DNA of 64,000 bases, taken from a virus (Duplodnaviria > Caudoviricetes). Positions within the stretch are counted from its first letter, which is position 1. Each line of letters starts with the position of its first letter. A program made the position numbers and the translations under genes. Where the stretch lies: positions 25,376-89,375 of IMG/VR virus record IMGVR_UViG_2859895461_000003; one strand, given 5' to 3'. Shown piece by piece: positions 19,932 to 45,517 of this stretch. The notes beneath the pieces were generated by a model, which worked only from the letters and a program-made list of their open reading frames with translations, was not told the DNA's origin and did no database searches.

Positions 19932-21778
19932 TGGAAAAGAGTGGATTTTTTAATGCTATGAAAGTAGGTGATACATGGGATAGGGTATATAAAGCAGAAA
20001 ATTATGCAGAGTATTTTGCTAGTTTTATTGGAAATGGTGTGTTTCCTAACCCATCTACAAATTTACAGGTAATAGGAATGGATAAAATGCAGGTAATAGT
20101 TAAGCCAGGCAAGGGTTGGATTAATGGCTATAAGTATGAAAACACAGATGATTTAATTTTACCTATAGATGTTGCAGATGGTGTATTGCATAGAATAGAC
20201 AAAATAGTATTGCGATACGATGTTGTTGAAAGAGAAATAAGAGCAAAGATAAAAAAAGGAGAGTTTGCTAGTGAACCTAAAGCACCGCAATTAACCAGAG
20301 ATGCTGACATGTATGAATTAGGCTTAGCAGATATAAAAGTTAATGCTGGATCTATAAGCATAACACAAGTTGATGTAACAGATCTAAGACTTAATAAAGA
20401 AGTGTGCGGAATAGTACACGGAACAATAGATCAGGTTGATACTACAACAATATTTAACCAATATTTAGAATGGTATAAGAATATAACAGGAAAAACAGAA
20501 CAGGAATTGCAAACCATAAAAGAAAATTTAGAAACAGATTTTAATATATGGTTTAATGGAATTAAAGAAACTTTAAGTGGAGATGTAGCAGGTAATCTAT
20601 TAAACTTAATTAATAAAAATAAAGATTCTATAGATACAGTACAGGACAATATAGATAAGTTAGAGAGGTCTACAACTTTACAATTGGCTGATATTACGAC
20701 ATATCAAACAGCTGGAGGAACAGCAAATGCAATAAGTTTAAATTTGTCTACTTTAGTAAATGGATATGCTACAACATTTATAGTAAATAAGAATAATAAT
20801 AAAAATGCTACAACTATAAATGGAAAACAATTATATAAACCTAATACAACTACTGCACCTAATTTAGTTACAGGAAAAGCAGTTTCAGTTTGGTATGATG
20901 CTACTAAAGATTGTTTTTTTATCAAGGCTAGTGCAGAAGGAAATGCCGTTGCTAAAGATGTACTAGCAGGAAAAATATTTAGCAATGATGACGATACTGG
21001 ATTAGTTGGAACATTAGATTTAAGTAATTTAACTTCTAATAATATAAAAGAAGGAATTACTATTAATGGTGTTAAGGGAAATGTAAAGCCTATGAAATAT
21101 GGGATTATTTTAAACCTTACAACAAAGATTGGTTATCAGACTAGTTCTGGTTATTCTATTCCTGGAGGTGGATATGTTCTTACAGGAAGAACTGGTTCAA
21201 GTTACTACATTAAATGTAATGGAATTGAATATTATTATGATTATAATAAGTCTAAACCTAATTACTTTCCAGTACCTTTTAATACTGGTCGAATTCTATA
21301 TTATAAAGGTGAACATAGATACTCTACTAAATTATCATCTATATTAAAAATATCAACTAGTCGAAGTAATGGATATGATTATGATATAATAAGTTCATTT
21401 GATATAGCACCCGCAGGGTATATGCCATATCAAATGCTTTTAGTTAATAATAATTGGATTATTTTATTTACTAAAGAAAGTGAGTGTATTATATCAACTT
21501 ATGATTTAAATTTATCTACCAAAATAAAAGAAATATCCTTAAATTTAGATAATCCTTGTTTATCTTACAATCATATATTTGATATAGGAAACAGTACTAA
21601 AATTTATGATTATACTGGAAAATTAATAAAATCAGTAGAAGTTATGAAACCATATGATAAATTAGTTGATTTAAATAAAAATGCTGCAATTGGAGAAAAT
21701 GAGTATGACTTAGGTGTAGTATTACACACTGAAGGTAGTGATTGTATGTGTGGTAATATAGTATCACCATTATTATAG
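19931..21778 (+). CDS. Baseplate/tail fibre (receptor-binding) protein
   Basis: Conserved N-terminus (GNGVFPNP, WINGY, DLRLNKEVCG), DVLAGKIF linker, divergent C-terminus. Confidence 0.8.
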   Translation: MEKSGFFNAMKVGDTWDRVYKAENYAEYFASFIGNGVFPNPSTNLQVIGMDKMQVIVKPGKGWINGYKYENTDDLILPIDVADGVLHRIDKIVLRYDVVEREIRAKIKKGEFASEPKAPQLTRDADMYELGLADIKVNAGSISITQVDVTDLRLNKEVCGIVHGTIDQVDTTTIFNQYLEWYKNITGKTEQELQTIKENLETDFNIWFNGIKETLSGDVAGNLLNLINKNKDSIDTVQDNIDKLERSTTLQLADITTYQTAGGTANAISLNLSTLVNGYATTFIVNKNNNKNATTINGKQLYKPNTTTAPNLVTGKAVSVWYDATKDCFFIKASAEGNAVAKDVLAGKIFSNDDDTGLVGTLDLSNLTSNNIKEGITINGVKGNVKPMKYGIILNLTTKIGYQTSSGYSIPGGGYVLTGRTGSSYYIKCNGIEYYYDYNKSKPNYFPVPFNTGRILYYKGEHRYSTKLSSILKISTSRSNGYDYDIISSFDIAPAGYMPYQMLLVNNNWIILFTKESECIISTYDLNLSTKIKEISLNLDNPCLSYNHIFDIGNSTKIYDYTGKLIKSVEVMKPYDKLVDLNKNAAIGENEYDLGVVLHTEGSDCMCGNIVSPLL

Positions 21779-21789
21779 GAGGTAAAATT

Positions 21790-22176
21790 ATGATATTTTT
21801 AAGTAACTTTGAAAAGGTTGAAGAAAATAAATTGAAGGTAAGATTCATACACTATATGCCTTTTGACCCTATTGACGGTTTGAATAAAACAAAAGAAGAA
21901 TTAGAATTAGAAGGAGTTCTTATAGAAAATATACCAGAACCGAAACATATTGAGAATAAACAAGCTATAATGTATTGGAATCCTGTAGATAAACAAATAT
22001 TCTATGAATATGAAGATGTCCCAAAATCTGATGAAGGATTAGAGCAACAAGCAGAATTAAATGCAAAATTGCTTAAAGATAATGCGAACATGCAAATAGA
22101 GCTAGATAAACAAAGAGAATTAAATTCAACTCTATTATTAAAAATAGCAGAATTAGGAGGTAATGCAAATGCTTAA
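21790..22176 (+). CDS. Tail-fibre-associated protein
   Basis: HYMPFD motif, precedes XkdX-like gene. Confidence 0.65.
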   Translation: MIFLSNFEKVEENKLKVRFIHYMPFDPIDGLNKTKEELELEGVLIENIPEPKHIENKQAIMYWNPVDKQIFYEYEDVPKSDEGLEQQAELNAKLLKDNANMQIELDKQRELNSTLLLKIAELGGNANA

Positions 22177-22291
22177 ATTTATAAAAGAATATTATGGGAT
22201 GGGACTTTATACAAAAGAAGATTTAGATATATTCGTAACAGCTAAATGGATAACTGTAGAAGAAAGAGAAGATATAATTAAGACGCAATAG
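22169..22291 (+). CDS. xkdX: XkdX family protein (40 aa, not in ORF track)
   Basis: MLKFIKEYYGMGLYTKEDLDIFVTAKWITVEEREDI; GGAGG RBS. Confidence 0.75.
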   Translation: MLKFIKEYYGMGLYTKEDLDIFVTAKWITVEEREDIIKTQ

Positions 22292-22381
22292 ATAAATAAT
22301 GCGACACATAATTGAATATAAAGTAAGCATAAGTTAAGACTATAGGTAGTCTTTTTTTATTGCTTAAAATGAGGTGAAGAT

Positions 22382-22495
22382 ATGAAAAAAATAAGTGATG
22401 ATTTTAAATTGTTTATAACAACTGCAGCTGCAGTTGGAACAATAATGTTTTTGGCTAAAGTTATTTATTTTCAGTTTATATACAGGAATTTATAA
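22382..22495 (+). CDS. 37-aa single-TM peptide (not in ORF track)
   Basis: GAGGTG RBS; MKKISDDFKLFITTAAAVGTIMFLAKVIYFQFIYRNL. Confidence 0.45.
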   Translation: MKKISDDFKLFITTAAAVGTIMFLAKVIYFQFIYRNL

Positions 22496-22508
22496 AAAAA
22501 TGTAGAAT
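22484..22508 (+). promoter_or_regulatory. SigH-like promoter
   Basis: AGGA-N17-GAAT upstream of the 22536 ORF. Confidence 0.5.
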
Positions 22509-22535
22509 TATCTAGATTAAGGAAGGTGATTCTAC

Positions 22536-23069
22536 ATGAATATAGATATTAATTCATTACAACAACAAATTAATTCTTTGTCTAATAGAATTAATTATAT
22601 TGATGAAACTATTAAGTTTAATATTAGTACATTTTTAACTACTTTAGCCATAGCTTTAGCTTTAGCAGGTGGAGCTGCTATAGTTATAGCAAAACATCTA
22701 TTTAATAAAAAATTTGAGGAAGAATCTAAAAAGATTGATAAAAAAATTAAATCATTTGTTTTAGAAAACCCCCAAATGCTATGGTTAAAAGGAGGTGGAA
22801 CTCTAATATGGACCAAAAGAGAAGATATTAATAACATACAATCAGCAATTGTTTTTTATGTAAATGGGTATATATCTAAGGAATTGATATTATTTACGGA
22901 ATTTAATTTAATAATAGGTACACAAAAATTTGCTATTGATGAATATAAAATAGAAACTAATGGCAATGAGGTTAAGGTTGAGTTTAAACATCCTAATAAT
23001 ATAGCAAGTTTTAATCAGATTGGATTTTTTATAATTTGGCAAAATCCAGTATATAAAAATAAAATTTAA
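22536..23069 (+). CDS. Membrane-anchored hypothetical moron protein
   Basis: Coiled-coil then TM (ISTFLTTLAIALALAGGAAIVIA); terminator follows. Confidence 0.65.
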   Translation: MNIDINSLQQQINSLSNRINYIDETIKFNISTFLTTLAIALALAGGAAIVIAKHLFNKKFEEESKKIDKKIKSFVLENPQMLWLKGGGTLIWTKREDINNIQSAIVFYVNGYISKELILFTEFNLIIGTQKFAIDEYKIETNGNEVKVEFKHPNNIASFNQIGFFIIWQNPVYKNKI

Positions 23070-23143
23070 AGGCAAAATGAGGACCATATAGGTCTTTTTA
23101 TTTTGCCTATTTTTACATCAAAAGAAGAAAGAAGGATATACAA

Positions 23144-24166
23144 ATGAAAACAATAAAACTATTAAGTCTATTTAGTGGAATAGGAGCCTTTGAAAAGGCA
23201 CTATCTAATATAAATCAAAATTATAAAATAATAAACTATTGTGAGATAGATAAGTATGCTAGTTATGCTTACAGTATACTTCACAATACAGATGAAGGCT
23301 TAAATTTATGGGATGTTTCTAAAATTAATACTACTAAATTAGAAGATTTTGATTTATTAACTCATGGGAGCCCTTGCCAAAGTTTTAGTTTAGCAGGTAA
23401 AGGTGAAGGAGGCGACGAAGGAAGTGGAACAAAATCATCATTAATGTGGTATACAGTTGATATTATTAGAGATAAGATGCCTAAATTTGTTATCTGGGAG
23501 AATGTAAAAGCAGTAATATGTAAAAAACATAAACATAACTTTGATAAATATATTAATACACTAGATAAGCTAGGTTACAACAGCTATTTTGAAGTACTAA
23601 ATTCTAAAGACTATGGAGCTCCACAATCAAGAGAAAGAGTTTTTGTTATTAGTATAAGAAAAGATATAGATACTTGCTTATTTAAATTTCCTAAGCCTAT
23701 AGATGGTGCTGTTTCAATCAATGACATATTAGATGAAGATATAGATAAAAAATATTATTGTATTAATAAATATACAAGAGAATTTATTAAAAAAGTAGAT
23801 AGAAAAGTTGTAGATAATAAGGAACCTAATAAATATGGATTATTGAGAGTAGGGAAAATCGAAAATCCAACAGCACTTAATATGAATAATAGAGTATTTT
23901 CAGCTGCAGGTGCTTGCCCTACTATTTTAACTGAGTCTCACAGTGTTCCTAAAATCATGGAATATAAGTTAAGAAGACTTACTCCATGTGAGTGCTGGAA
24001 GGCTACGGGCTTTACACAAGAAGATTATTGGAATGTAAGAAATGCTTTAGAATTAAGATTTTATAATGGGAAAGATAAAAGTGATAGCAAGATGTATAAA
24101 ATGGCAGGAAACTCTATTGTAGTTAATGTTTTAGAGCATATATTGAAAGAATTATTTAAAAATTAA
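23144..24166 (+). CDS. dcm: Orphan DNA (cytosine-5)-methyltransferase
   Basis: Motifs I FSGIG, IV GSPCQSFS, VI ENV, VIII QSRERVF, X GNS. Confidence 0.95.
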   Translation: MKTIKLLSLFSGIGAFEKALSNINQNYKIINYCEIDKYASYAYSILHNTDEGLNLWDVSKINTTKLEDFDLLTHGSPCQSFSLAGKGEGGDEGSGTKSSLMWYTVDIIRDKMPKFVIWENVKAVICKKHKHNFDKYINTLDKLGYNSYFEVLNSKDYGAPQSRERVFVISIRKDIDTCLFKFPKPIDGAVSINDILDEDIDKKYYCINKYTREFIKKVDRKVVDNKEPNKYGLLRVGKIENPTALNMNNRVFSAAGACPTILTESHSVPKIMEYKLRRLTPCECWKATGFTQEDYWNVRNALELRFYNGKDKSDSKMYKMAGNSIVVNVLEHILKELFKN

Positions 24167-24202
24167 AGTGTAGCTCCTATATTATTTATATGGAGGTGTA
24201 AT

Positions 24203-24457
24203 GTGGAATTAAAAGTCTGTGAAGAAAAACATAAAAGGATAGAGGAAAAAATTAATGTTCATGATATTAGGCTTAATGACCATTCAAAGAGAATTGATAA
24301 GATAGAACAAAATCAATCTAGGACAGATGCTAAAATTGAAAATCTGTGTGATCAGTTAAAACAATTAGTAAGCATAATGAAATGGTATATAGGAGTATCG
24401 GTAGGAGCTTTAGTAAGCTTCTTTTTTTATGCAATTCAGCACAATTTATTTAAATAG
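24203..24457 (+). CDS. xhlA: XhlA-family lysis accessory protein
   Basis: Coiled-coil plus C-terminal TM, precedes holin. Confidence 0.8.
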   Translation: MELKVCEEKHKRIEEKINVHDIRLNDHSKRIDKIEQNQSRTDAKIENLCDQLKQLVSIMKWYIGVSVGALVSFFFYAIQHNLFK

Positions 24458-24462
24458 GAGGA

Positions 24463-24735
24463 ATGTTTATGGAAATTAATTTAATGGATTATATTATAGA
24501 TCAGGCATTAATACTAATACCAGCTTTATATGTACTAGGTATTATGTTGAAACAAACTAGTAAAATTAAAGATTGGACCATTCCGTGGATTTTATTAGTA
24601 GTTGGAGTAATTGGAGCTATATCTTTAATGGGATTAAATCCAAATGCAATAATTCAAGGTATATTGGCTACAGGTGCAGCAGTATATACTAATCAACTAA
24701 TTAAACAAAGTACAGGAAAAAAAGAGCAGGATTAA
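24463..24735 (+). CDS. Phage holin
   Basis: Three TM segments, IKDWTIP and IIQGIL, VYTNQLIKQ. Confidence 0.85.
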   Translation: MFMEINLMDYIIDQALILIPALYVLGIMLKQTSKIKDWTIPWILLVVGVIGAISLMGLNPNAIIQGILATGAAVYTNQLIKQSTGKKEQD

Positions 24736-24769
24736 TGCCTGTTCTTTTTAATTTTAAGGAGGTTATAAG

Positions 24770-25792
24770 ATGGCTAAAGGAATAGATATAAGTATGCATA
24801 ATGGCACTGTTAATTTTAGTGCTGTAAAGTCTAGTGGCTGTAGTATAGTTATTATAAAGGCTACAGAAGGAGTACAATATGTAGACCCATATTTAAATAC
24901 TCATTACAATGGTGCTAAGGCTCAAGGAATTAATATTGGATTTTACCACTTCATGAGCGAGAAAACAGACCCAGCACAACAAGCACTGGACTTCTGGAAT
25001 GCTATAAAAAACAAACAGTTTAATATAATACCTACATTAGATATAGAAACTAATAGTATGGGTAGAAGTGCTAAAGTAATTTCCGATAGGTGCATACAGT
25101 TTTTAACTAAATTTAAAGCTTTATCTGGCTATGATTGCCTTATCTATACTGGTGGGTATTTTGGAAGAGATAACTTAGATAGTAGAGTAAAGAAATACAA
25201 AGGCTGGATTGCCCATTATGGAGTTAACAATCCTATGGCAACAGGATTCAATGTTGTGGGACATCAGTATACAGAAGATGGTCGAATAAATGGTGTGAGC
25301 ACTAGAGTGGATTTAAATAATTTTGAAAATGGTATTTTTATTGGGAAAGATACAAATGTAGTAGAAACAAGAGAAACGAAAATACAAAAAATGCTCATTA
25401 CAATAGGATATCCTATAGGACCTTCTGGAGTTGATGGAATTATAGGTAATGGAACTATCAGAGCTATAAAAGCATTTCAGAAGGATTGTAACTTAACTGT
25501 AGATGGTGATGTTAGTTCTAAAACATGGGATAAATTAGTTTATGAATATAATAGAAAATTAGGAGTTAAACCAACTCAAAAGGAGGAATTTGATATGGAT
25601 AAAGTAATATTATATTTTGGCCCTTTAGACGCTTTGAGTGCGGTATTAGTATCTCAAAAATATCAATGCCCTATGATGCTTAAAAAAGATTTTGAAGATA
25701 AAAAGTTGAAAGCAAAAGAAATAATAACTATAGGTGGTAAACCTGGAACAAATAGATATGATTCTTTTAAAGATGCAGCTAAATTAGTATAA
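24770..25792 (+). CDS. Endolysin, GH25 muramidase with PG_binding_1 domain
   Basis: GIDIS, KATEG, LDIE, HQYT, VDLN; AIKAFQ..L.VDG. Confidence 0.92.
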   Translation: MAKGIDISMHNGTVNFSAVKSSGCSIVIIKATEGVQYVDPYLNTHYNGAKAQGINIGFYHFMSEKTDPAQQALDFWNAIKNKQFNIIPTLDIETNSMGRSAKVISDRCIQFLTKFKALSGYDCLIYTGGYFGRDNLDSRVKKYKGWIAHYGVNNPMATGFNVVGHQYTEDGRINGVSTRVDLNNFENGIFIGKDTNVVETRETKIQKMLITIGYPIGPSGVDGIIGNGTIRAIKAFQKDCNLTVDGDVSSKTWDKLVYEYNRKLGVKPTQKEEFDMDKVILYFGPLDALSAVLVSQKYQCPMMLKKDFEDKKLKAKEIITIGGKPGTNRYDSFKDAAKLV

Positions 25793-25797
25793 AATGG

Positions 25798-25831
25798 TGG
25801 TGGTTCCTTAAGTGGAGCTACCACTTTTTTT
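25798..25831 (+). terminator. Endolysin terminator
   Basis: TGGTGGTTCC-TTAAGT-GGAGCTACCA then T-run. Confidence 0.75.
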
Positions 25832-25840
25832 ATTTTTTGA

Positions 25841-25865
25841 AGGAATTTATAATAATTTGTAGAAT
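25841..25865 (+). promoter_or_regulatory. SigH-like promoter for SIR2 gene
   Basis: AGGA-N17-GAAT. Confidence 0.5.
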
Positions 25866-25902
25866 AACATACAAAAGATGAAAATATTAACATTGAGTGC
25901 AT

Positions 25903-25970
25903 AAAAAAGAAACCACTGGTGATTGGCGTCAAAGTGGTTTCTAAAAATCAACTGTATTTCACTAAATATT
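25903..25970 (-). ncRNA. Candidate small RNA antisense to SIR2 leader
   Basis: Minus-strand TGn-TATAAT (25977-25985) and 10-bp hairpin AGAAACCACT/AGTGGTTTCT with minus-strand T-run. Confidence 0.35.
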
Positions 25971-26025
25971 ACCTCTATTATAGCATAAATTTAGTGAAAT
26001 ATAAATAAAATAATGGAGGAGAATC

Positions 26026-27669
26026 ATGGTGGATAAATTTGAACAAGAAGTAAAACAAATATTCAGTAAGTTTGATCTTAAGCCATTCTTGTTTGTTGGG
26101 GCAGGATTATCTATAAGATACTATAAATTACCTGATTGGAAACGTTTATTAATGGACATAACTGAGAAATATATAGATGTAGGTAACAATTTTGCTTTTG
26201 CTAGTGTACAAGAAGAAGCTGAAAATGAGATTAGTGATAGAATAAATAAAATTCAAAATTTTGAAGAACATTCACATGGTTATTTTATGAAAGGTGATGA
26301 AAAGAAGTTTAATACATATCCTATTATAGCATCTAAGCTATGCAGGAAGTTTAACCAAAAATTTTATAGTTCGGGAGGAAAATTTCCTTTTGAATTAAAA
26401 CAACATGAGGTGTTATCTCTAAAACGACATGAGATTTCTCCATTTAAACTTTTAGTGGCCAAATATTTAGAAAGTATTAAATTTAAAACGAATGAATATT
26501 TTGATGAAATTAGAAATTTTAAGGAAATGGAACAACATTTGGCAGGAATTATTACTACTAATTATGATGATTTTTTAGAATCACATTTACAATTTCCAGT
26601 ATATATAGGACAGAATGATTTATTTAATGTTAATACTACATATAAATTAGGAGAAATTTATAAAATTCATGGCTGTTTAAGTCAGCCAAATTCAATTATA
26701 TTAAATGAAGAGGATTATACAAATATATATGAGAGATATCAATATCTTTCTGCTAAACTGTTAACATTTTTTATTGAGCATCCGATCATATTTATTGGAT
26801 ATAGTATTTCTGATAAAAATATTAAAGATATATTAGTGGATATTAACAAATGTTTAAATAGCCAAACTAAAGAGAAAATAGCAAATAGATTAATATTTAT
26901 TGAAAGAACAGATGATGTAAATAAGCAAGCGATAATACCATTTCAAGAACAAGCAAGTGGATTAATGTTTCATAAGATTGTATTAAAAGATTTTAATATA
27001 TTGTATAAAGCTATATTAGAGGTTAATGATAGTATTCCGACAAGAATAGTAAGACTTGTACAGGATAAAATAGCAACTCTTGTTAAGACAACAGACAGTA
27101 CTAAGAAAGTATATTATGGTAGTGAATTAGAAAATCCTAATGTTTCAGATGATAAATTAGTAGTATTTATCGGAACTAAAGACAAGCTCTCTACGTTTGG
27201 ATATGCAGGAATGAGAATACAAGATATACATAAAGATGTTGTATTTAATAATATTGGATTTAAAGGAGAAGAATTATTTGAACTTTCACTACCAATAATG
27301 CCATATATTGAACGTTCCAAGATACCTTTATGGAAGTATATGAAAGATTGTGGCTACAAAGAAGAGTATGCTAGACATATAATAAAAAAACCTAGTGAAG
27401 TAATAACAAGAAATTTAATATCCCAAAAATATGTCCGTTTAGTAAAAGAATGTTTAAACATTAATGATATAATAAAATTACAATTACAAAAAAATGTTGA
27501 AATTGCTGCTGTTTTATATAAAGTAGAAAGTTTTGAGATTGATGAAATAGAAATGTATTTAAAAAATAATTTTAAATCTCAAATTGATAATAAGAATAAT
27601 AAGACTAATTTTAGAAAATTAATTACTGCTTATGATTGTTTAAAATACAATATAAAAGCTGCCAAGTAG
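26026..27669 (+). CDS. SIR2-like (SIR2_2) protein, probable anti-phage NADase
   Basis: FVGAGLS, ITTNYD, YKIHG, FIGYSISD motifs. Confidence 0.88.
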   Translation: MVDKFEQEVKQIFSKFDLKPFLFVGAGLSIRYYKLPDWKRLLMDITEKYIDVGNNFAFASVQEEAENEISDRINKIQNFEEHSHGYFMKGDEKKFNTYPIIASKLCRKFNQKFYSSGGKFPFELKQHEVLSLKRHEISPFKLLVAKYLESIKFKTNEYFDEIRNFKEMEQHLAGIITTNYDDFLESHLQFPVYIGQNDLFNVNTTYKLGEIYKIHGCLSQPNSIILNEEDYTNIYERYQYLSAKLLTFFIEHPIIFIGYSISDKNIKDILVDINKCLNSQTKEKIANRLIFIERTDDVNKQAIIPFQEQASGLMFHKIVLKDFNILYKAILEVNDSIPTRIVRLVQDKIATLVKTTDSTKKVYYGSELENPNVSDDKLVVFIGTKDKLSTFGYAGMRIQDIHKDVVFNNIGFKGEELFELSLPIMPYIERSKIPLWKYMKDCGYKEEYARHIIKKPSEVITRNLISQKYVRLVKECLNINDIIKLQLQKNVEIAAVLYKVESFEIDEIEMYLKNNFKSQIDNKNNKTNFRKLITAYDCLKYNIKAAK

Positions 27670-27767
27670 AAATGTGCCTTCATAGAAGGGGCATTTCTAG
27701 AATAAAAGGTATCCCTCTAAGGGAGCCTTTTATCAACTTAGCAGCTTGTAATATTATATGTGATCAT
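27655..27767 (-). ncRNA. Candidate structured RNA convergent with SIR2 3' end
   Basis: Minus-strand TTGAAA-17-TATAAT; closing stem GCTGCTAAGT/ACTTGGCAGC enclosing two hairpins. Confidence 0.45.
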
Positions 27768-27789
27768 ATTAACATTATACATTTATATT

Positions 27790-27847
27790 TAATTTATTTC
27801 AATACTAATTTAAATCAACATATTTAAATTAGTATTGAAATAAATTA
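27790..27847. repeat. Perfect 26-bp inverted repeat, 6-nt loop
   Basis: TAATTTATTTCAATACTAATTTAAAT-caacat-ATTTAAATTAGTATTGAAATAAATTA. Confidence 0.85.
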
Positions 27848-28045
27848 TAATTTAAATCAAAAGGCAGTTCCTTGATTGATATGATCTCTTTTTTATTTTT
27901 TGTATAAAAAATTTGTTAAAGTTAAAATAGATGTAAGAAATAATTTAATAATATAAGGTATAATCAAATTTATACTTTGCATCAGAATTAAACAATAATA
28001 ATAACAATTTTTATTAGTATTGTTATTATTATGTGTTCCAAATAG

Positions 28046-28070
28046 AGGATTTACAACCCATTTCTAGAAT
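28046..28070 (+). promoter_or_regulatory. SigH-like promoter for HTH gene
   Basis: AGGA-N17-GAAT. Confidence 0.5.
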
Positions 28071-28091
28071 AATTACATATACTGGAATGGG

Positions 28092-28301
28092 GTGGTGTAT
28101 GTGGTTAAAAATCGGCTAAAGGAAATAAGAATGAAGGAATATATGATGGATCAGAAACAGTTTTATACAATGTTAGGTATAAGTAAAAGCACTTATAGTC
28201 AAATAGAAAATAATAAGCAACAAGGTAATATAGAAACAGTATTGAAGATAGCAAAGGCTCTTAGTCGACCAGTTGAAGAAATATGGTTCCTGGAAGACTA
28301 G
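28092..28301 (+). CDS. Cro/CI-type HTH regulator
   Basis: KNRLKEIR...LGISKSTYSQIEN...VEEIW. Confidence 0.85.
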   Translation: MVYVVKNRLKEIRMKEYMMDQKQFYTMLGISKSTYSQIENNKQQGNIETVLKIAKALSRPVEEIWFLED

Positions 28302-28479
28302 GAGCTTTTTTATTCTATAAAATTCTTATATATAAATAAAAGAATACAACTATAAACTTTTTCCGTAAAGTAGGAAACTTTTCCCGAAGTAGTGCATAGG
28401 ATATATTAAAAGACAACAAAGAATACAATTTGGGCATTGTATACATTAAATTAATACAAAGTATACGGAGGTGACAAAG

Positions 28480-28647
28480 TTGGCAGAAAGGTTAAGAGTT
28501 GTCTTAGAATTTAAGAAAAGTGACATAAAAGAACTGCAACTATATGGTAAATTATTAAAATTTAGCAATCCAGCTGCAGTAGTTAAAGATATTTTAAAAG
28601 GCACATTACCAATAAAAATTTTATATGAGGAGGAATTAAAAAAATAA
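28480..28647 (+). CDS. 55-aa ribbon-helix-helix-like protein (not in ORF track)
   Basis: GGAGGTG RBS, TTG start; MAERLRVVLEFKKSDIKELQLYGKL... Confidence 0.6.
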   Translation: MAERLRVVLEFKKSDIKELQLYGKLLKFSNPAAVVKDILKGTLPIKILYEEELKK

Positions 28648-28871
28648 TAAAATAATGCGAAGTGGAGTTATATGGCTATAAAAATATAGCTTTAAGCCTT
28701 TAAAAAGAGATAAAAATAAAGCCTAGCAGAAGGCTAGACTTATCCCATGTCGCTAAAAGTATGCTACGCTTACTTGTGTTACGCTACACTACACTTCTAG
28801 CTTATGCAAACAGATTGGAAAAGTTGTGTATTTAAGGTGTATTTATACGAATATTAATATTTAATTTACAT

Positions 28872-28937
28872 TTAAAATTTTTCAATTATATGTGTTGCAA
28901 TTATCATACCTGCACCAAGCCAAAATAGTGGAGACAT
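28872..28937 (-). CDS. 21-aa hydrophobic peptide or truncated membrane gene
   Basis: GAAGG RBS; MSPLFWLGAGMIIATHIIEKF. Confidence 0.3.
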   Translation of the reverse strand: MSPLFWLGAGMIIATHIIEKF

Positions 28938-29011
28938 GTTAAAACCTTCTTTCAGATTCACTTGTTTATTTATAGTATCTACCAATAATTAATTTTTATT
29001 CAGGAGGATTT

Positions 29012-29416
29012 ATGAAAATTTGTGTTATTTATTCTAACACTAAAGTAGAAGATTTTAAGAATAAACAAAGAATTAAATATAATTCTAACATGGAGCTAGT
29101 AGCCAAACATATTAACACAGATAATAAATTAAAAAGGCAAGCAGTATTTGTTTTAGGAAGTCTTTTCTATATCCAGGATGTGGTCTCTGCAGCAGGAGAT
29201 TTAGGGAAAATAGATAAGGCAGGAAATACTATATTAGATATAGTTAGAAAAATAGGTTATTGGATATGTATTGTAGGATGCATAATAGATATAATTAAAA
29301 GTTTAATGCAAGGTGATACAAAGTCCATTGCTAAAATAATGATGAAATATGCTTTAGCATTTGCAGCACTTTATATTTTCCCATGGATGTTAGATCTAAT
29401 TAAAGGTATTTTTTAA
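29012..29416 (+). CDS. TrbC/VirB2 pilin-like membrane protein
   Basis: Leader ending VSA followed by two TM helices. Confidence 0.55.
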   Translation: MKICVIYSNTKVEDFKNKQRIKYNSNMELVAKHINTDNKLKRQAVFVLGSLFYIQDVVSAAGDLGKIDKAGNTILDIVRKIGYWICIVGCIIDIIKSLMQGDTKSIAKIMMKYALAFAALYIFPWMLDLIKGIF

Positions 29417-29428
29417 GGAGGAATATAT

Positions 29429-29665
29429 ATGGAATGGGTACAAAAATTTATAGAAAGAGGTCAATATCATGCACCACAAAATACTTTTGTGTTCAGAAGT
29501 AAGTTATTAGATGTTTTATCAACTAATGCATACTGGATATGTATGTTTGTAGGGATAGGTGGAATATTAGCATATCTATGTGGATATAAAAAAGGCGGAA
29601 AGTTAACTAAGTTTTCTGTAGTAATTTATTGGGTGGTTGCTGCTATATGTTCAACAGGAAAATAA
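29429..29665 (+). CDS. Small two-TM membrane protein
   Basis: 78 aa, two hydrophobic helices, overlaps ATPase start. Confidence 0.6.
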   Translation: MEWVQKFIERGQYHAPQNTFVFRSKLLDVLSTNAYWICMFVGIGGILAYLCGYKKGGKLTKFSVVIYWVVAAICSTGK

Positions 29666-32007
29666 AATCCATGACTTTAAAAGATTATTTTCAAATACAA
29701 AAACCCATATATAAAATACTTAAACTCACACCAGATACAAGTATAAGGAACTATAATAGTTCTAACATAGCTAAGTCTATTCAATATATGTATAAAACCA
29801 TATCACAAAGGATTCACAGAGAAGAAAAGAAAATCTTTATAGAAGCTCCAGTAAAATGTTCTTATATGATAGATATACAAAAGAATAATGTAGACTTTTA
29901 TTTTGTAATTCCAGAAAGGTACTTAGGACTTATAAAAGAGAAGATTACAGAAACATGGCCAAAGGTTACTATAGAAGAAGTTACACAAATAAAACAATTT
30001 TCATTACAAGCTATTAAATATCAGCTAAATTATTCTAAAGAGGATGCACTTTCTTTAAATATAAATAAAAAATCTAATGAACCTCTAAATTCTATACTTA
30101 ACGTACTAGATGTAATGAAAGAGGGAGATAGGGTAGGAATATTTTATAATTTTATACCCATAGTTCAGAGGGGGTGGAGAAAGGAATATCAGGATACAAT
30201 AGATAAGATTAAAGAAAATAAGCCTATTGATAGAGAAAAGTTTAATATTAAATATATTATAAAAGAAGGAATAATTTTATTAGTTAATCTAGCACAAGAT
30301 CTATTTGATACCATAGGAGAGTTTGTTGGAGTAGAAAAGAAGAAAGAAGCTCCTACATTAGCAGAGATAGCTGTATCTAGTTTAATGTTAGAGGATAAGA
30401 AAAAATTAAGTAGGAATACTGTAAATAAAAAAGATGCTATAGTACTTAATACACAAATGGCTATATTATCGGAGAGTAAAGATTTTAAAAGGCAGGAAAA
30501 TAACGCTGTAGCAGTTCTAGAAGGATACAATACTGTATCAGAAGACAATGAGTTGATATATAAAAAAATACCTAAAAAGAATAATTTTTATATTACGGAT
30601 TTTAAAATAGCAGGTGTGGAAGAAAATAAATTAAGTACAGAAGAATGTCAAAATCTTTTACAACTTCCAGGAAGAGAGCTACTTCAACAACATAAGGTTA
30701 TAGAAAAAATAGATACACTAGAAACAGAAGTTCCAAAAGAACTAAGTGGAGGTAGTAAGTTAATAGGTGTAAATGAATATAAAGGAAATAAACAAAATAC
30801 TTATTTAACTACGGATAAAGATTATAAAAATTTGGCAGTAACAATAGTAGGACCAACTAGAAGTGGAAAAACTTCATTTATGGGTAATATAGCAAGAAAT
30901 AGTATAGATGCAGGAGAATGTATTATAGTTTTAGATTATATAGAAAATTGTTCTTTGAGTGATGATATAAAGAAATGCATTCCACAAGATAAGGTATTAG
31001 AAATTAATCTATATGATCACACTAAACTTCAAGGATTAGGGTATAATGAGGTAATCGCTGTCAGCGATAATACATTTGTACAGTATGAAAGTGCAAAGAA
31101 ACAAACAAGTCAGTTAATTACATTAGTAAACTCTATTAATGTTTCTAATAGTGATTTTACTCCTAAGATGGAGAGATATTTAACTGCAGCTAGTTTAGTT
31201 GCATTTATAAATAATGGAGCTATTAAAGATGTATTTAAAATACTGCAAAATCATAAATTTAGAAAAAAATGTATAGATACCATCCCAGAAAATCAAAGTG
31301 AAAACTTAGAAGAGTACGTAGAATATTTAAGAGAACTAGATGAATGGTCTAAAGGCACTAAGGATAATCCATCACAGATTATAGGAACTCATTCCAGTTA
31401 TATTACTGGTATTATAGATAGGGTACAAAAATTAAAATCTAATACTTATATGGAACTTATGTTGAAAAAAGATTGTAGTGAGAATATTGATTTATTAGAA
31501 GAAATGGAGAAAAATCAGGCTATATTTATAAAAATGCCTGAAAATATGTTTAGCACACCAGAAGAAAGAGATATAATGACTACTTACTGGTTAACTAAGA
31601 TATGGATGTGTGCTCAAGCCAGGGCTTGGAAAATTAAAGATAGGTATGCAAGAAAGACTGTTACTGTATTTACAGATGAAATTGCACAATTAAAAAGTTC
31701 TGAACAATTCATAGGAAATAAGCTAGACCAAACAGCTAAGTTTGGAGTTAAGTTTATACTATCTACTATGTATATAAACCAACTAAGAATTAGAGAAAAA
31801 CTAAGAACTGCAAACACTTCATATATACTTATATCTGGATCAGATAAGATAAATTACATGGAATTAAGGGATGAATTAAATCAATTTGGATATGAGTTAG
31901 AAGATCTTATGAATTTAAAAAGATTCCATTCACTTAACTATGTAAAATATGAAAATGGATACTGGGCAGGTATTACTAAGTTACCTCCTCCAATCAATAA
32001 ATCTTAA
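29629..32007 (+). CDS. VirB4/VirD4/FtsK-HerA-like P-loop ATPase
   Basis: Walker A GPTRSGKT, Walker B VFTDE, AKFG motif. Confidence 0.75.
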   Translation: MGGCCYMFNRKIKSMTLKDYFQIQKPIYKILKLTPDTSIRNYNSSNIAKSIQYMYKTISQRIHREEKKIFIEAPVKCSYMIDIQKNNVDFYFVIPERYLGLIKEKITETWPKVTIEEVTQIKQFSLQAIKYQLNYSKEDALSLNINKKSNEPLNSILNVLDVMKEGDRVGIFYNFIPIVQRGWRKEYQDTIDKIKENKPIDREKFNIKYIIKEGIILLVNLAQDLFDTIGEFVGVEKKKEAPTLAEIAVSSLMLEDKKKLSRNTVNKKDAIVLNTQMAILSESKDFKRQENNAVAVLEGYNTVSEDNELIYKKIPKKNNFYITDFKIAGVEENKLSTEECQNLLQLPGRELLQQHKVIEKIDTLETEVPKELSGGSKLIGVNEYKGNKQNTYLTTDKDYKNLAVTIVGPTRSGKTSFMGNIARNSIDAGECIIVLDYIENCSLSDDIKKCIPQDKVLEINLYDHTKLQGLGYNEVIAVSDNTFVQYESAKKQTSQLITLVNSINVSNSDFTPKMERYLTAASLVAFINNGAIKDVFKILQNHKFRKKCIDTIPENQSENLEEYVEYLRELDEWSKGTKDNPSQIIGTHSSYITGIIDRVQKLKSNTYMELMLKKDCSENIDLLEEMEKNQAIFIKMPENMFSTPEERDIMTTYWLTKIWMCAQARAWKIKDRYARKTVTVFTDEIAQLKSSEQFIGNKLDQTAKFGVKFILSTMYINQLRIREKLRTANTSYILISGSDKINYMELRDELNQFGYELEDLMNLKRFHSLNYVKYENGYWAGITKLPPPINKS

Positions 32008-32072
32008 CACATATTACAATTTATGATAAAATTAAACTTAATATTTGTTTATGAATGAGGGGGATAAATTAA

Positions 32073-32459
32073 ATGAACAGTATAAGTTTTACACTACTAT
32101 GTTCTATGATATCTGGAATTATAGGAGTTATAATATCTAATATATACTATAAAAAATATGAAAAAAAGAAATTAAAGTTTGATGTCTTAAAAAATATAAT
32201 GGGTTATCGTTATATTATGACAACTATGGAACCCACTAAAGAAGATCATTATTTCTTTAGTGCGCTTAATGAAGTATTTATTGTGTATAATGATTGTCCT
32301 CAAGTGATTGAGGCTATAAAGAAATATCATGATAATTTGTCAAATCTAAGTAACTTATTGGATTTAATTAAAAGAATGTGTGACGAACTAAAAATTGATT
32401 ATTCTTTTATTAATGATGAATTTATAAATAAACCATTTAGAACTGGTTCTAAAAAATAA
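32073..32459 (+). CDS. Hypothetical membrane-anchored protein (DUF6680-like)
   Basis: N-terminal TM; ALNEVFIVY motif. Confidence 0.55.
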   Translation: MNSISFTLLCSMISGIIGVIISNIYYKKYEKKKLKFDVLKNIMGYRYIMTTMEPTKEDHYFFSALNEVFIVYNDCPQVIEAIKKYHDNLSNLSNLLDLIKRMCDELKIDYSFINDEFINKPFRTGSKK

Positions 32460-32491
32460 TATAATTAAAATATATTATAAATAGGAGCCAA

Positions 32492-32905
32492 TTAAGGCTC
32501 CTTAGTTGTTAATTGGATTAATTTATTTTTTATTTTGTAATAAGTATCTCTTCTTATAAGCATACCGTTTAGCCAATGATTATACATAGTTTGGTGTACT
32601 TCTAACACTTTACAAATTTCCCTTACAGTTAGATTATTTTTTAAGAGTAAATTTTTTAAAAAAGTTTGGGGATCATTAGATATAAATATATAATAATCAT
32701 CCATAAAAATATTTATATCCATATCTAAAACTTTTGCTATTTTCTCCAACTTTTTTATAGGGGGATAAATTTTATCTGTTTCATACGTGCCTATTGCACT
32801 TTTCTTAGTATTTGTTTGTATACTAAGTTCCTTTTGTGTCAATCCTCTTAATAACCTGTACTTCTTAATTTTTTCTCCTATTGTATTTTCAGGTAGAGGT
32901 GGCAT
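32492..32905 (-). CDS. Double-HTH XRE family regulator
   Basis: TIGEKIKKYRLLRGLTQKEL and a second HTH; frame open upstream to ~32965. Confidence 0.8.
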   Translation of the reverse strand: MPPLPENTIGEKIKKYRLLRGLTQKELSIQTNTKKSAIGTYETDKIYPPIKKLEKIAKVLDMDINIFMDDYYIFISNDPQTFLKNLLLKNNLTVREICKVLEVHQTMYNHWLNGMLIRRDTYYKIKNKLIQLTTKEP

Positions 32906-32960
32906 TTTAGCTATGTATTTAAATGTCGCAAGATTGTCCCACGACCTACGGGAAGTGGTA

Positions 32961-33194
32961 AGTATCTATAAAAGAATGTGCATAATATAATTAATAAATG
33001 TTTAGATTAATTATATAAGATGAATTTAAAATATAAAACAAAAAATATCAATTTAGATAAGTTGATGGAATTTATAGAGAATTAATTTATTTTATGGTAA
33101 TATTTAATGATAAAGTAAAATTTGTTTAAGAGGTCTAAATACATAATGAGTATAGAGCGATATGTATTCAAGAAAAAAGTTGTAAATTTAAAAT
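32961..33194 (+). repeat. Element left end, copy 1
   Basis: AGTATCTATAAAA...GTAAATTTAAAAT, imperfect direct repeat of 46788-47039. Confidence 0.9.
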
Positions 33195-34315
33195 TAAGTA
33201 AAAATATTATTAAAAAAGTTCCATTAGTAATTGTGTATGATAATAGAGATAAAATATATATTGTGCATCCAATATCACAATTTATTTTTGATAATTATTT
33301 TAATAGCAAGTTTAATTCTCAAAGGATGGCAATTGATAAGGTAATTCCATTTTTAAATTATGTAGTAAGTAAAGGGGTTAAATTATCAGAATTGAGATTT
33401 GTTCATGGTGAACGATTTTTGAATAGTTTATCATTAAATGGATTAGCAAAAAATACAGTTAAAAAGTATGAGCAAGTTTTAACTAAATTTTATTATTGGC
33501 TATCAAAAAATAAAATTATAAAAATACAAATTTCTAAATTTATAATTAATGAAAAAGAAAAGTATGTACAATCCCCATTTAAAAAAATAATTTATAATCC
33601 TTCGCTCCCAACTAACAATATTATTCATACAATTAAATTAGAGTTAGTACCTATGTTTTTAGATACTGCTATTAAAGAAACAAATATAATTGCTCTAGGG
33701 GTATATTTTCAATTGTTTGGAGGACTTAGAAAAGGAGCAATAGTAAACTTAAAAAAATCATCAGTTAATTTAATGGGGGTAAACGGAGAATATGGAATAG
33801 AATTAAATATAAAGAAAAATTATTTTAGGAATGATATAGCAGATTCTTCAGGGTCAACAGAAGTAAAGAAACAAAGAAAACAAATAGTATTAAGTGTAGG
33901 AAATAATATACTTACTTATTTATATCAAAACCATATAAATAAGTATACTAATAATAAGACAGACGCGTTATTTAGCAACAATAATGGAAAAGCAATGACA
34001 GGTGCTAGTTATGAATACTATTTTAAAAAATTAAGACAAGCTTTTATACGAAGATTATTAGATAGTGATGATATAAGGTTAAATGGATATGGAAAAGTAC
34101 TATCTACTCAAAAATGGAGTACACATATCGGAAGAGGAATTTTTTCTAATATGGTTGCAGAATATTCAAATGAGTTACAGCTTTCTATAATAAGGGGAGA
34201 TAGTAATGTAAATTCATCACGTATATATGTGGAAAAAAGTGAAAAAGCAATTAATAAGATTAGTGATGCATTGAATAAGATGTATTTTGATGTTATAAAG
34301 GATTTGAAAGAATGA
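33146..34315 (+). CDS. Tyrosine recombinase A
   Basis: GGLRKG, STHIGR, RGDSN..SSRIY catalytic motifs; start moved to ATG 33146. Confidence 0.85.
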   Translation: MSIERYVFKKKVVNLKLSKNIIKKVPLVIVYDNRDKIYIVHPISQFIFDNYFNSKFNSQRMAIDKVIPFLNYVVSKGVKLSELRFVHGERFLNSLSLNGLAKNTVKKYEQVLTKFYYWLSKNKIIKIQISKFIINEKEKYVQSPFKKIIYNPSLPTNNIIHTIKLELVPMFLDTAIKETNIIALGVYFQLFGGLRKGAIVNLKKSSVNLMGVNGEYGIELNIKKNYFRNDIADSSGSTEVKKQRKQIVLSVGNNILTYLYQNHINKYTNNKTDALFSNNNGKAMTGASYEYYFKKLRQAFIRRLLDSDDIRLNGYGKVLSTQKWSTHIGRGIFSNMVAEYSNELQLSIIRGDSNVNSSRIYVEKSEKAINKISDALNKMYFDVIKDLKE

Positions 34316-38076: not shown

Positions 38077-38097
38077 GATAGGAAGGGATTAAATTTA

Positions 38098-39684: not shown

Positions 39685-39695
39685 GAGATGATTAT

Positions 39696-40283
39696 ATGAG
39701 TGGAAGGCCTCCAAAATATTCTGATTATGAACTTAAAGATATATTAATGAAAATAGCTTTAAATTATAAGGAAAAAATAACACCATCTTTATTAGAAAAA
39801 AGAACAAACATAAAAAGACATGTATGGCTAAGAAGAATGAGAAAAGAGATAGATTTAGTTAATAAGGGTACTACATTTATTGATAAAGATTCAATTAACA
39901 ACTTACCTTTACCTAATATAGCCAACATTGTGGAAAAATACTATGAAGATAAAGAAAAATTAATAAATGAATTAATTTGGTATAACGAAAAATTACAAGA
40001 TGCTTATAATAAGATCTCCGAAAATGAATCTCTCAAATCAAAAATAATAGACATTGAAAATAAGTTAAAAAATAAGGATTTAAGAATTAAAGAATTAGAA
40101 CAAAAATGTAAATACTTTGAGGAACTATATTTAGTATCAGAAGCTAAGAATAATATGTTTAATGGTATATCTGCACTAGAGTCTAATGGTAAGATAATTG
40201 ATCTAGAAAAGGAAAAGCAAAAACTATCATTAATTGATTTTGAAAATCAATTTCCAGATTTGTTTGATTTAAAAAATAAATAA
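39696..40283 (+). CDS. Recombination accessory protein (GinD/TnpC/Srap-like)
   Basis: GRPPKY HTH-like N-terminus and coiled-coil; fourth gene of operon. Confidence 0.6.
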   Translation: MSGRPPKYSDYELKDILMKIALNYKEKITPSLLEKRTNIKRHVWLRRMRKEIDLVNKGTTFIDKDSINNLPLPNIANIVEKYYEDKEKLINELIWYNEKLQDAYNKISENESLKSKIIDIENKLKNKDLRIKELEQKCKYFEELYLVSEAKNNMFNGISALESNGKIIDLEKEKQKLSLIDFENQFPDLFDLKNK

Positions 40284-42488: not shown

Positions 42489-42852
42489 CAAAAATATGAC
42501 TTTTTATAAAATAAACGCTTAAAAAGATATAATTTATTTTAAATCCATAAGGGTTATTTATAATTTTGCTATTATAAGGGTATTCCATAAGAACTATAGA
42601 TATACATAAATATCATGCAAATCCTAGAAACACATTAAGGATTAATCTATGTGTTATAGTAATTATAAGTAATATAAAAATACTGTAATAGAGTAATTAC
42701 ATATGTTCATAACTTTTTTAAAGAAGTTAAAAATTATAGTATTTAAATAATTGACGAATATTATTTATGAAATAAGGAAATGTACAATATTGTGTTATAA
42801 ATTTTATATAATTTATTAGTACTATTTTTAATTTATGTTAAGAGGTTAAAAA

Positions 42853-45231: not shown

Positions 45232-45517
45232 AAATAATATATTGTATGCTTTAAAGGTGTAATAAATATCATTAATAGTATAAAAATATAAGAATAAATT
45301 ATTAAAATTTATCATTATCCATAAATTTGTACAGTTCATGTTTATAAAATGCAAATAATTTAACTAGCGCAATAGGTTAATTTATATAAATGTATATGAT
45401 AAAAAGTAAAAAAACACGACAATTAAAAAATTAGTAATAATTTTGTAAGGATATCTAATAAAGGATAAGTAAATAATCTTTATTTAATAATGATATTAAA
45501 GAAGAGTTGAGGAGAAA

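Follow-up and report, generated by a model that had tools for sequence, protein, structure and literature searches.

Defence catalogues enter stand-alone SIR2 proteins as one-gene systems, with no account of what keeps such proteins off. In the window (the whole 64,000-nt stretch of DNA analysed here), an initial annotation had placed a convergent structured RNA with a palindromic promoter past the stop codon of a SIR2 gene. From its sequence, the segment 26018–27815 reads as a two-gene cassette composed of a single-protein SIR2 NADase gene and a facing, putative small non-coding RNA gene. The features of the locus are listed below.

26018..27815, both strands: shared cassette, 95.7% identical to the closest relative, L001 (blastn)
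26026..27669, plus strand: SIR2-family NADase gene, 547 aa (Pfam, PADLOC, phrog, fold)
27652..27767, minus strand: predicted small RNA of ~116 nt (leader, closing stem around two hairpins, U-tract; ends predicted)
27658..27667, minus strand: closing stem, 3′ arm, within the last SIR2 codons, pairing with 27736–27745
27668..27698, minus strand: hairpin b, bulged; its minus-strand form has a 2x2 internal loop
27704..27731, both strands: hairpin a, bulged, with a U-tract on each strand
27736..27745, minus strand: closing stem, 5′ arm, pairing with 27658–27667
27774..27802, minus strand: small-RNA promoter (-35 TTGAAA 27802..27797, 17-nt spacer, -10 TATAAT 27779..27774)
27790..27847, both strands: perfect 26-nt inverted repeat (arms 27790–27815 and 27822–27847, 6-nt spacer)

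The SIR2 protein and the predicted facing RNA in the window

The SIR2 protein consists of a SIR2 domain (residues ~1–330) and a helical C-terminal domain of ~160 residues (385–546). It was matched by SIR2_2 in a Pfam search (E 4.1e-24), by phrog_2695, and by the PADLOC model PDLC04968 for PDC-S25 (E 1.6e-128), in which residues 5–542 aligned with positions 10–515 of 517, a coverage that makes it a full-length member of the PDC-S25 family. PDC-S25 is itself only a candidate system. No nuclease domain was detected in the protein by Pfam or PADLOC. An AF2 model (mean pLDDT 80) used as a Foldseek query retrieved the SIR2 domains of DSR2, KomC and ThsA. In an alignment of 33 sequences G25, G27, T177, T178, N179, Y180, D181, H215 and G216 were invariant; TTNYD and the His of KIHG aligned with KomC, H215 falling in the column that reads N in the KomC H146N entry. 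All of the SIR2-type NADase motifs (Rossmann GxG, TTNYD and the catalytic His) are present, and the catalytic motifs of the predicted enzyme are intact as judged from the alignment. Compared with solved structures, the C-terminal domain gave no Foldseek match at E ≤ 0.001, and its best VIA match (Z 4.6) was to helical repeats. A new fold was considered for this domain and set aside, as poor matches of this kind are no evidence of one.

The minus-strand promoter of the initial annotation, TTGAAA and TATAAT with a 17-nt spacer, was found at 27802..27774 as a near-consensus, sigma-70-type sequence (11/12). The DNA here is AT-rich and its promoter-like sites are no denser than chance would give (27 vs. 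26.4 ± 4.7 in shuffles), and thus the small-RNA promoter alone proves nothing. The RNA was predicted to start 7 nt past the -10 and to end at the U-tract, and would overlap the last 10 nt of the SIR2 coding sequence together with the 3′ UTR predicted for its mRNA. The initial annotation had described a closing stem that encloses two bulged hairpins and overlaps the SIR2 stop, and folding recovered this structure (z about -7); the stem takes in the final three codons of SIR2 and reaches its stop TAG (27667–27669), and the two hairpins resemble each other. The minus strand folded with an MFE of -47.5 kcal mol-1 (z -7.37; 0 of 200 shuffles as good) and the plus strand of the same region with -46.7 kcal mol-1 (z -7.12). 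The fold in the window is therefore about equally stable on either strand, i.e. strand-neutral. The G-U pair of the closing stem works only on the minus strand, as the initial annotation had stated; as read from the two folds, each hairpin has a plus-only wobble.

Two other identities for the RNA were considered and rejected. An AUG close to the predicted start is followed by 9 codons; by eye, this small ORF lacks a ribosome-binding site and is not conserved. Compared with the known features of integron attC sites, promoters and U-tracts were present and no conserved R-box was seen by eye.

Hairpin a scored as terminator-like in both directions (27712–27724). It is likely to be the terminator of the SIR2 mRNA and possibly an early terminator of the minus-strand RNA, in which case the minus transcript could end at ~65 nt and not at ~116 nt at the closing stem. 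These properties suit a model in which nothing acts in trans: the convergent promoter would fire into bidirectional terminators that insulate or terminate the two units, and the hairpins of the window would be terminators only. Strand-neutral folding of the window and the enrichment of terminator-like sites in this DNA (8 vs. 0.7 expected) are in keeping with that model. Beyond a plain intrinsic terminator, a GC-rich hairpin with a U-tract, the locus has its promoter, its closing stem and the conservation at family level described below; hairpin a itself fits such a terminator in both directions.

The closest relative, L001, shares a block that runs from 8 nt upstream of the SIR2 ATG to 13 nt past the -35 of the RNA, so that the limits of the cassette match those of the SIR2 start codon and of the promoter of the RNA; on either side the two sequences are unrelated or diverge more strongly. 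The small-RNA promoter is kept in L001. All four substitutions between the window and L001 in paired positions keep pairing on the minus strand, although these are one-sided changes with a chance expectation of ~1 in 16, and this RNA class rests on two sequences. Blastn against phage records returned no close relative, nor did single-protein scans of genome contigs or of metagenomes. An exact search with a 26-nt pattern found only the L001 contig, and plasmids gave only short SIR2-domain matches. The cassette sits in a prophage of a Clostridium that bears a neurotoxin cluster.

The perfect 26-nt inverted repeat is present, and the -35 of the small-RNA promoter falls in its left arm. Its right arm begins exactly where homology to L001 ends and is missing from L001; the palindrome is peculiar to the window. 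Perfect arms of at least 14 nt were found in the corresponding region of 4 of 101 loci of the family vs. 2 of 101 in a control region, and a palindromic promoter was consequently discarded as a family feature. The repeat is probably a local inverted duplication outside the conserved module. A third copy of the half-site, with 2 mismatches, lies at 28007–28022; window-wide, half-site matches were at chance level for an operator (17 vs. 12 ± 3.6).

The facing RNA across the PDC-S25 family

Scans confirmed relatives in many phyla (519 stretches from one-genome-per-species contigs, 180 viral and 543 metagenomic). The comparison set comprised 101 non-redundant loci of the single-gene SIR2 family PDC-S25, which are related by descent, so that the counts below are not independent events. 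Within 300 nt past the SIR2 stop, a minus-strand promoter of at least 10/12 was found at 57 of the 101 loci and a plus-strand promoter at 14; the convergent promoters lay mostly 95–150 nt from the stop, over a background of ~0.10 per 300 nt. The 120 nt past the stop folded better by at least 5 kcal mol-1 on the minus strand at 74 loci and on the plus strand at 1, while in mid-CDS controls the minus strand was better at 10 and the plus strand at 31. By class, the minus strand was better at 34/34 loci of class A, 10/14 of class B, 0/2 of the window class (W) and 30/51 of the others. In class A the median MFE was -17.4 on the plus strand vs. -35.9 on the minus strand.

Covariation downstream of SIR2 homologues, which the initial annotation had suggested checking, was clear in two RNA classes, represented by the covariance models R2 (class A) and R1 (class B). 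The 3′ hairpin of class A was 87.7% paired vs. 75.5%, with 97 double-change cells vs. 29.9, and slid controls were 40–56% paired; the 5′ hairpin was 89.2% paired vs. 76.3%. Both hairpins of class A have a core of G.U, G-C and U.G (GGU/GCU) that is invariant in Firmicutes and Desulfuromonadales alike. In class B, compensatory changes were seen in 14 of 20 pairs, and two UGAA/GGAU internal loops flank a covarying 6-bp helix. Independent metagenome matches of class B were 93.8% paired vs. 85.1% when shuffled, with 0 of 500 shuffles as high. The RNA was shown to come in several sequence classes, each with two similar structural modules. Class A loci include those of Lysinibacillus mangiferihumi and Oribacterium sinus, and class B includes that of Anaerocolumna aminovalerica; Streptococcus phage SVep1 also carries a cassette.

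Of 82 sources, made up of 80 genome loci, L001 and the window, 41 were matched by the class A model; every match was in a genome locus, and 14 lay outside the seed. The model also matched 16 of 79 viral loci. Among 80 independent metagenome loci there were 29 class A and 15 class B matches (44/80), every one on the minus strand at the SIR2 stop. In each of five whole genomes there was exactly one class A match, located at the SIR2 locus. Neither model fitted 51 of the 101 loci. The window itself was not matched by R1 and had only a chance-level match to R2, at 16859. By sequence, the window RNA is best described as a third, rare variant of which two members are known; it shares with class B only position, orientation, promoter, leader motif, outer stem and U-tract, and the window SIR2 has the clade of class B as its sister group. 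The Bacillus phage phBC6A51 has a SIR2 homologue, and no RNA was recognised in its 580-nt gap.

These comparisons show, at the level of sequence, that a convergent promoter-driven structured RNA beside SIR2 is a conserved trait of the PDC-S25 family, since folding is strand-specific, stems covary and the models match only at the SIR2 stop. What had been proposed from one locus was thus borne out in the family, and this comparative evidence is decisive for the predicted RNA gene. It also makes the model of terminators only decidedly improbable: a terminator has no need of invariant internal nucleotides, conserved internal loops or a second upstream hairpin, a promoter aimed at a terminator from ~100 nt and conserved across phyla points to a product, and each of the five genomes has a single copy of the motif, at its SIR2 locus.

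No protein neighbour was conserved among the 101 loci, the commonest neighbour cluster being found at 25. The initial statement that SIR2 has no adjacent protein sensor stands to that extent; SIR2 is not sensor-less, however, as it has a helical C-terminal domain of its own. Downstream of the SIR2 loci, integrases (18/101) and serine recombinases (7/101) were found, and HTH regulators were common neighbours. Such neighbours would be expected if the element served the mobile element, helping to maintain the prophage or to control integrase or immunity, whether as an RNA or as a DNA site. We consider this highly improbable, as the RNA is also found beside SIR2 outside prophages, for example adjoining type I restriction-modification genes (12/101), it always abuts SIR2 whatever lies past the RNA, and the G-U pattern and promoters indicate an RNA and not a DNA site.

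No known RNA family accounted for the element. Searched at E ≤ 1, Rfam 15 gave only a chance-level sau-19 match elsewhere in window positions 20000–36000. At the gathering score, 19 loci gave only a distant tRNA, and 9 loci at E ≤ 1 gave one chance-level CRISPR-DR20 in L003, ~2.4 kb from the RNA. A literature search of papers available without subscription found none that connects SIR2 with an antisense or partner RNA.

Proposed control of SIR2 by the RNA

The RNA is, by inference, probably an antitoxin-like gatekeeper of SIR2. The invariant core of class A, the internal loops of class B and the two alike hairpins of the window suggest recognition beyond antisense pairing. Our preferred mechanism, held tentatively and at somewhat less than an even chance, is that the RNA is a dedicated partner of SIR2 resembling a type III antitoxin. 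It would be made constantly from its strong promoter and would bind the SIR2 protein (a dimer or higher oligomer) through its two modules, holding the NADase off. A phage that shuts off host transcription or degrades RNA would cause the RNA pool to fall; SIR2 would then be freed, NAD+ depleted and the infection aborted.

In 3 of 9 viral matches confirmed by the model, the RNA gene stands without a SIR2 gene, and such RNA-only survivors are consistent with a harmless antidote. Other observations sit less easily with binding of the RNA to SIR2. The stop-abutting, convergent position in every match would be needless for protein binding, class A proteins lack a basic C-terminal domain (net charge over the family has a median of 0), and in the window, where folding is strand-neutral, both hairpins could be plain terminators.

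That same convergent, stop-abutting geometry in every model match would be explained by type I-like cis-antisense control. The RNA would pair with the 3′ end or UTR of the SIR2 mRNA and lead to its decay (e.g. by RNase III), keeping SIR2 low until the unstable RNA disappears and involving no contact between RNA and protein. The minus fold is rich in G-U pairs and its plus-strand complement, as in class A, folds poorly, which would leave the mRNA target open, and in the window a SIR2 mRNA ending at hairpin a would overlap the RNA by ~70–85 nt. The layout is like that of the 3′-overlapping antitoxin RNAs of Bacillus prophages. bsrG/SR4 and txpA/RatA are type I pairs of Firmicutes prophages with 3′-overlapping convergent antisense RNAs, and the cassette resembles them in its prophage setting and in having a convergent RNA with its own strong promoter that overlaps the 3′ end of the toxin mRNA. 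The toxins of those pairs are peptides only some tens of residues long, and their RNAs are not known to keep their sequence from phylum to phylum, in contrast to a 547-aa enzyme and an RNA with an invariant core and strand-specific covariation. Type I toxins in general are small, usually membrane-active peptides. Complementarity comes free with convergent overlap and leaves the duplicated core and the nucleotides invariant across phyla unexplained, and release would require new synthesis of a large protein in the middle of infection. We regard cis-antisense control as the sole mechanism as unlikely, if not strongly so; under the preferred mechanism of RNA binding to SIR2, the 3′ overlap may add an antisense layer. 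Pairing of the RNA in trans with the SIR2 ribosome-binding region was tried and set aside as unconvincing (mean duplex energies only slightly better for cognate, -31.9, than for non-cognate pairs, -29.4; p 0.03, by a crude method), the SIR2 5′ regions containing only ordinary Shine-Dalgarno sequences.

The known systems closest to the preferred mechanism are the type III toxin-antitoxin and Abi systems ToxIN and AbiQ-antiQ, in which, according to PMC13064643, the RNA binds the toxin. They set a structured RNA of repeated modules next to the gene of a protein toxin and defend against phages through abortive infection, features that the cassette would share. The differences are in arrangement and enzyme. 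In those systems the RNA repeats stand upstream in the same operon, with a terminator, and the toxin is an endoribonuclease that cuts out the repeats, whereas the RNA here is a separate gene, downstream and convergent in the window and in all model matches, and the protein belongs to the SIR2 family of NADases. The cassette shares the SIR2 fold and catalytic motifs with DSR2, ThsA (Thoeris) and KomC (Kongming), and with DSR2 the possession of a helical C-terminal domain. It would differ from these effectors in its trigger, theirs being a phage protein or a nucleotide signal; the searched literature describes no dedicated RNA gene for DSR2, ThsA or KomC.

The RNA could, conversely, be a required cofactor, scaffold or sensor, on which SIR2 depends for its assembly or for recognition of a cue from the phage. 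Conservation, the two-module architecture and exclusive linkage to SIR2 would all be compatible with such a role, and dedicated ncRNAs are functional components of other defence enzymes, DRT10 among them according to the preprint PMC12632851. Nothing in the RNA is guide- or template-like, and its variable parts are covarying stems and not exposed loops, which renders a cofactor role improbable. The RNA-only remnants have no bearing on it, either way.

We also put forward, as a possible but doubtful proposal, that the cassette represents a new toxin-antitoxin-like immune module, in which a dedicated two-module RNA binds and gates a stand-alone SIR2 NADase and loss of the RNA during phage-induced shut-off of transcription is the signal of infection. 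The proposal would extend to the relatives that the scans confirmed in many phyla. PDC-S25 is catalogued by PADLOC as a single gene. A conserved partner RNA that appears neither in Rfam 15 nor in the searched papers would redefine the unit as one of two components. It would give a testable off switch and an infection sensor for an NAD-depleting effector, and would extend RNA-antitoxin logic to a new class of toxin. RNA components can escape catalogues of defence genes that are compiled from proteins only.

The SIR2 gene and its predicted convergent RNA

The cassette and its immediate surroundings comprise the following features.

24203-25792, upstream of the SIR2 gene: prophage lysis cassette (XhlA, holin, GH25 endolysin)
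26026-27669, plus strand: SIR2-family gene (ORF of 547 aa, SIR2_2 domain)
28092-28301, plus strand: HTH protein of 69 aa, the next plus-strand gene after SIR2

The SIR2 protein matched PDC-S25, a single-gene SIR2 candidate system of PADLOC, across its full length (E 1.6e-128), and also the phage family phrog_2695. Its catalytic motifs are intact. In the AlphaFold model, a SIR2 domain (residues ~1-330) is followed by a helical C-terminal domain (385-546), with a low-confidence stretch (354-367) between them. The SIR2 part is structurally similar to DSR2, KomC and ThsA; the C-terminal domain, modelled alone with a pLDDT of 88, had no clear match among solved structures in a structure search.

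Siphovirus structural genes precede the lysis cassette. A defence-island-like gene run 3′ of the SIR2 cassette (29629-32007 and 34312-46798) encodes a 792-aa protein (phrog_5156, weak PADLOC mad8 match), a 1254-aa HTH_17 protein, a Schlafen-like helicase, an AAA/SMC-like ATPase and a KAP NTPase; the interval 32492-34315 carries an HTH repressor and an integrase-like ORF. Far from the lysis cassette, at 47361-48317, another GH25/PG_binding_1 endolysin-like gene points to a second region of phage origin, now degraded. An orfX/P47-type neurotoxin gene cluster occupies 49221-64000, ~20 kb downstream of the SIR2 prophage, with three P47-family ORFs, a small sigma-70 region-4 ORF, an NTNH ORF (56657-60148) and a botulinum-neurotoxin-like ORF running past the window end; its presence identifies the host as a neurotoxin-bearing Clostridium.

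The initial annotation had proposed a structured minus-strand RNA convergent with SIR2. Indeed, a TTGAAA-17-TATAAT promoter was found on the minus strand at 27802..27774, together with the claimed fold, in which a closing stem (27658-27667 with 27736-27745) encloses hairpins a (27704-27731) and b (27668-27698). The minus strand folded with an MFE of -47.5 kcal/mol (z -7.4). The plus strand of this region folded equally well (-46.7 kcal/mol), hairpin a is terminator-like on both strands, and promoter-like sites occur around the RNA at chance density. The window by itself is compatible with two terminators between convergent units; that the hairpins are mere terminators is considered improbable.

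A possible second small RNA lies 5′ of SIR2 on the minus strand (25900-26005), in a stretch not common to the viral contig L001. A promoter-like TTTATA-17-TATAAT with TG (26005..25977) is followed by a hairpin (~25911-25943) and a T-run, and the predicted product of ~70 nt would be antisense to the SIR2 leader.

L001, the one close relative found, encodes a SIR2 96% identical to that of the window and retains the promoter and fold of the convergent RNA. Homology (95.7%) extends from 26018, 8 nt 5′ of the ATG, to 27815, 13 nt past the -35, and is then interrupted until 28049, where it resumes at 87%. Because of these limits, and because the genes upstream of SIR2 differ, SIR2 and the RNA promoter are taken to form one exchangeable block. 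Eight substitutions separated the 128 nt compared. The four in predicted pairs all keep minus-strand pairing (A-U to G-U, G-C to G-U, G-U to A-U, U-G to U-A), a weak signal from four events; on the plus strand, by reading, two break and two mend pairs.

The -35 had been placed in a perfect 26-nt inverted repeat, which was recovered at 27790-27815 with 27822-27847. The repeat is far above chance, yet private to the window: its right arm is absent from L001 and starts exactly at the homology breakpoint. We interpret it as the product of a local, inverted duplication affecting the cassette's promoter-distal end. The repeat gives rise to a plus-strand site (27823..27851) that is promoter-like and arranged back-to-back. 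Directly 5′ of the HTH gene are AT-rich inverted repeats (27991-28032 and 28007-28022), among them a third copy of the palindrome's 16-nt half-site with 2 mismatches. These may form an operator set for the HTH protein, with half-site matches window-wide not above chance.

Promoters, strand bias and neighbours across the family

Relatives were confirmed by an alignment-based scan in 519 of 558 candidate stretches from one-genome-per-species contigs, 180 of 227 from viral contigs and 543 of 589 from metagenome contigs, and the best 80 loci per scan were kept. The C-terminus was matched, with at least 300 nt downstream, in 121 of 160 tblastn-matched loci; adding the window and removing loci with more than half of their downstream 12-mers in common left 101.

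A minus-strand promoter (at least 10/12, within 300 nt after the SIR2 stop) was present at 57/101 loci, mostly 95-150 nt from the stop, and a plus-strand one at 14/101, against a background of ~0.10 per 300 nt. In the 120-nt region spanning and following the stop, the minus fold was better by >5 kcal/mol at 74/101 loci and the plus fold at 1/101; in mid-CDS controls the counts were 10 and 31, respectively. Median fold z was -3.17 for minus and -1.56 for plus.

No protein neighbour was conserved across the 101 loci, in agreement with the claimed absence of an adjacent protein sensor. The commonest neighbour clusters were HTH proteins (25), tyrosine integrases (18), HsdS (12), HsdM (9) and serine recombinases (7). 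Among the neighbours of PDC-S25-family SIR2, the RNA is thus the most constant; that it serves a mobile element is highly improbable. In L243 (1468-3330; Streptococcus phage SVep1, an inducible temperate phage with a deposited record), a SIR2 homologue lies between a CI-like repressor and an integrase. It is followed by a 270-nt gap in which a TTGACT-17-TAGAAT promoter occurs on the minus strand and a terminator hairpin is located at the stop of SIR2; the deposited record carries no RNA annotation.

Two covarying RNA classes

Covariation, which the initial annotation had proposed as a check, was clear in two RNA classes, A and B, found at relatives of the window's SIR2. Class A consists of two tandem hairpins, each with an invariant G.U, G-C, U.G base below a covarying apical stem. 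In its 3′ hairpin (29 sequences), 87.7% of cells were paired versus 75.5% in shuffles (0/500 as high), and double-change cells numbered 97 versus 29.9; slid controls gave 40-56%. The 5′ hairpin was 89.2% versus 76.3% paired in 18 sequences selected by a simple core pattern. Class B (12 seed sequences) is a single long hairpin with outer stem AAGGUAUA/UAUACCUU and, between two UGAA/GGAU internal loops, a 6-bp helix whose sequence varies freely while complementarity is kept; RNAalifold predicted 20 pairs, 14 with compensatory changes. Many conserved pairs are G-U, for which the plus-strand equivalent would be an A-C mismatch.

The class A model matched 41 of 82 sources (80 genome loci plus the window and L001); every match was a genome locus, and 14 lay outside the seed. 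It also matched 16 of the 79 viral loci, and ten of these are near-identical. The class B model matched 13 of 100 sources, of which 2 lay outside the seed, as well as the last seed sequence. In an independent metagenome set, class A was matched at the SIR2 stop in 29/80 loci, with one more match elsewhere, and class B in another 15/80, which covary again in an alignment fitted to the model. All matches at SIR2 genes were on the minus strand and abutted the stop, and five whole genomes gave exactly one class A match each, at the SIR2 locus (150 candidates per genome scored). By model, the 101 loci comprised 34 of class A, 14 of class B, 2 of the window's type and 51 outside both models; among these 51, the minus fold was markedly better in 30 and the plus fold in 1. 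L162 and L163 carry a further variant with UGAA motifs.

The window's RNA matched neither covariance model. A FastTree tree with midpoint root placed its SIR2 as sister to the class B clade, and by reading the window's RNA and class B have in common the promoter distance, the leader motif ACAUAUAAUA..UACAAG and an outer stem with a U-tract after it; two alike hairpins replace the class B interior in the window. Rfam 15 contained no family matching the SIR2-associated RNA, and no link between SIR2 and an RNA, whether dedicated or antisense, emerged from the literature searched. Passages of one source (PMC13064643) describe AbiH as sirtuin-like, and ToxIN and AbiQ as having RNA antitoxins.

Possible roles of the RNA

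Of 80 loci from a pattern scan of viral contigs, the class A model confirmed 9: 5 with an intact convergent SIR2, 1 with a truncated SIR2 and 3 with no SIR2 inside 2.2 kb, two of which look identical to each other. In L323 (2150-2400) and L269 (2030-2290) the class A RNA gene is complete, with its promoter and both hairpins, and SIR2 is reduced, by eye, to a few C-terminal codons; L310 has the ORF pattern of L269. These few RNA-only remnants fit a harmless antidote.

The comparisons show a predicted RNA gene that is conserved, strand-specific, promoter-driven and exclusively linked to the PDC-S25 SIR2 family. Type I-like cis-antisense control of SIR2 mRNA would suit the strictly convergent geometry abutting the SIR2 stop and the weak folding of the complement within the mRNA. 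Such an RNA needs no invariant nucleotides, yet the core is invariant, and this control is a less probable, though serious, alternative. For that reason, and because the identical core is duplicated in two modules, as would suit an oligomeric protein, we tentatively favour a protein-binding RNA that would act as gatekeeper of SIR2. An RNA acting as an activating cofactor of SIR2 is rather unlikely. Protein binding and antisense control may both be at work.
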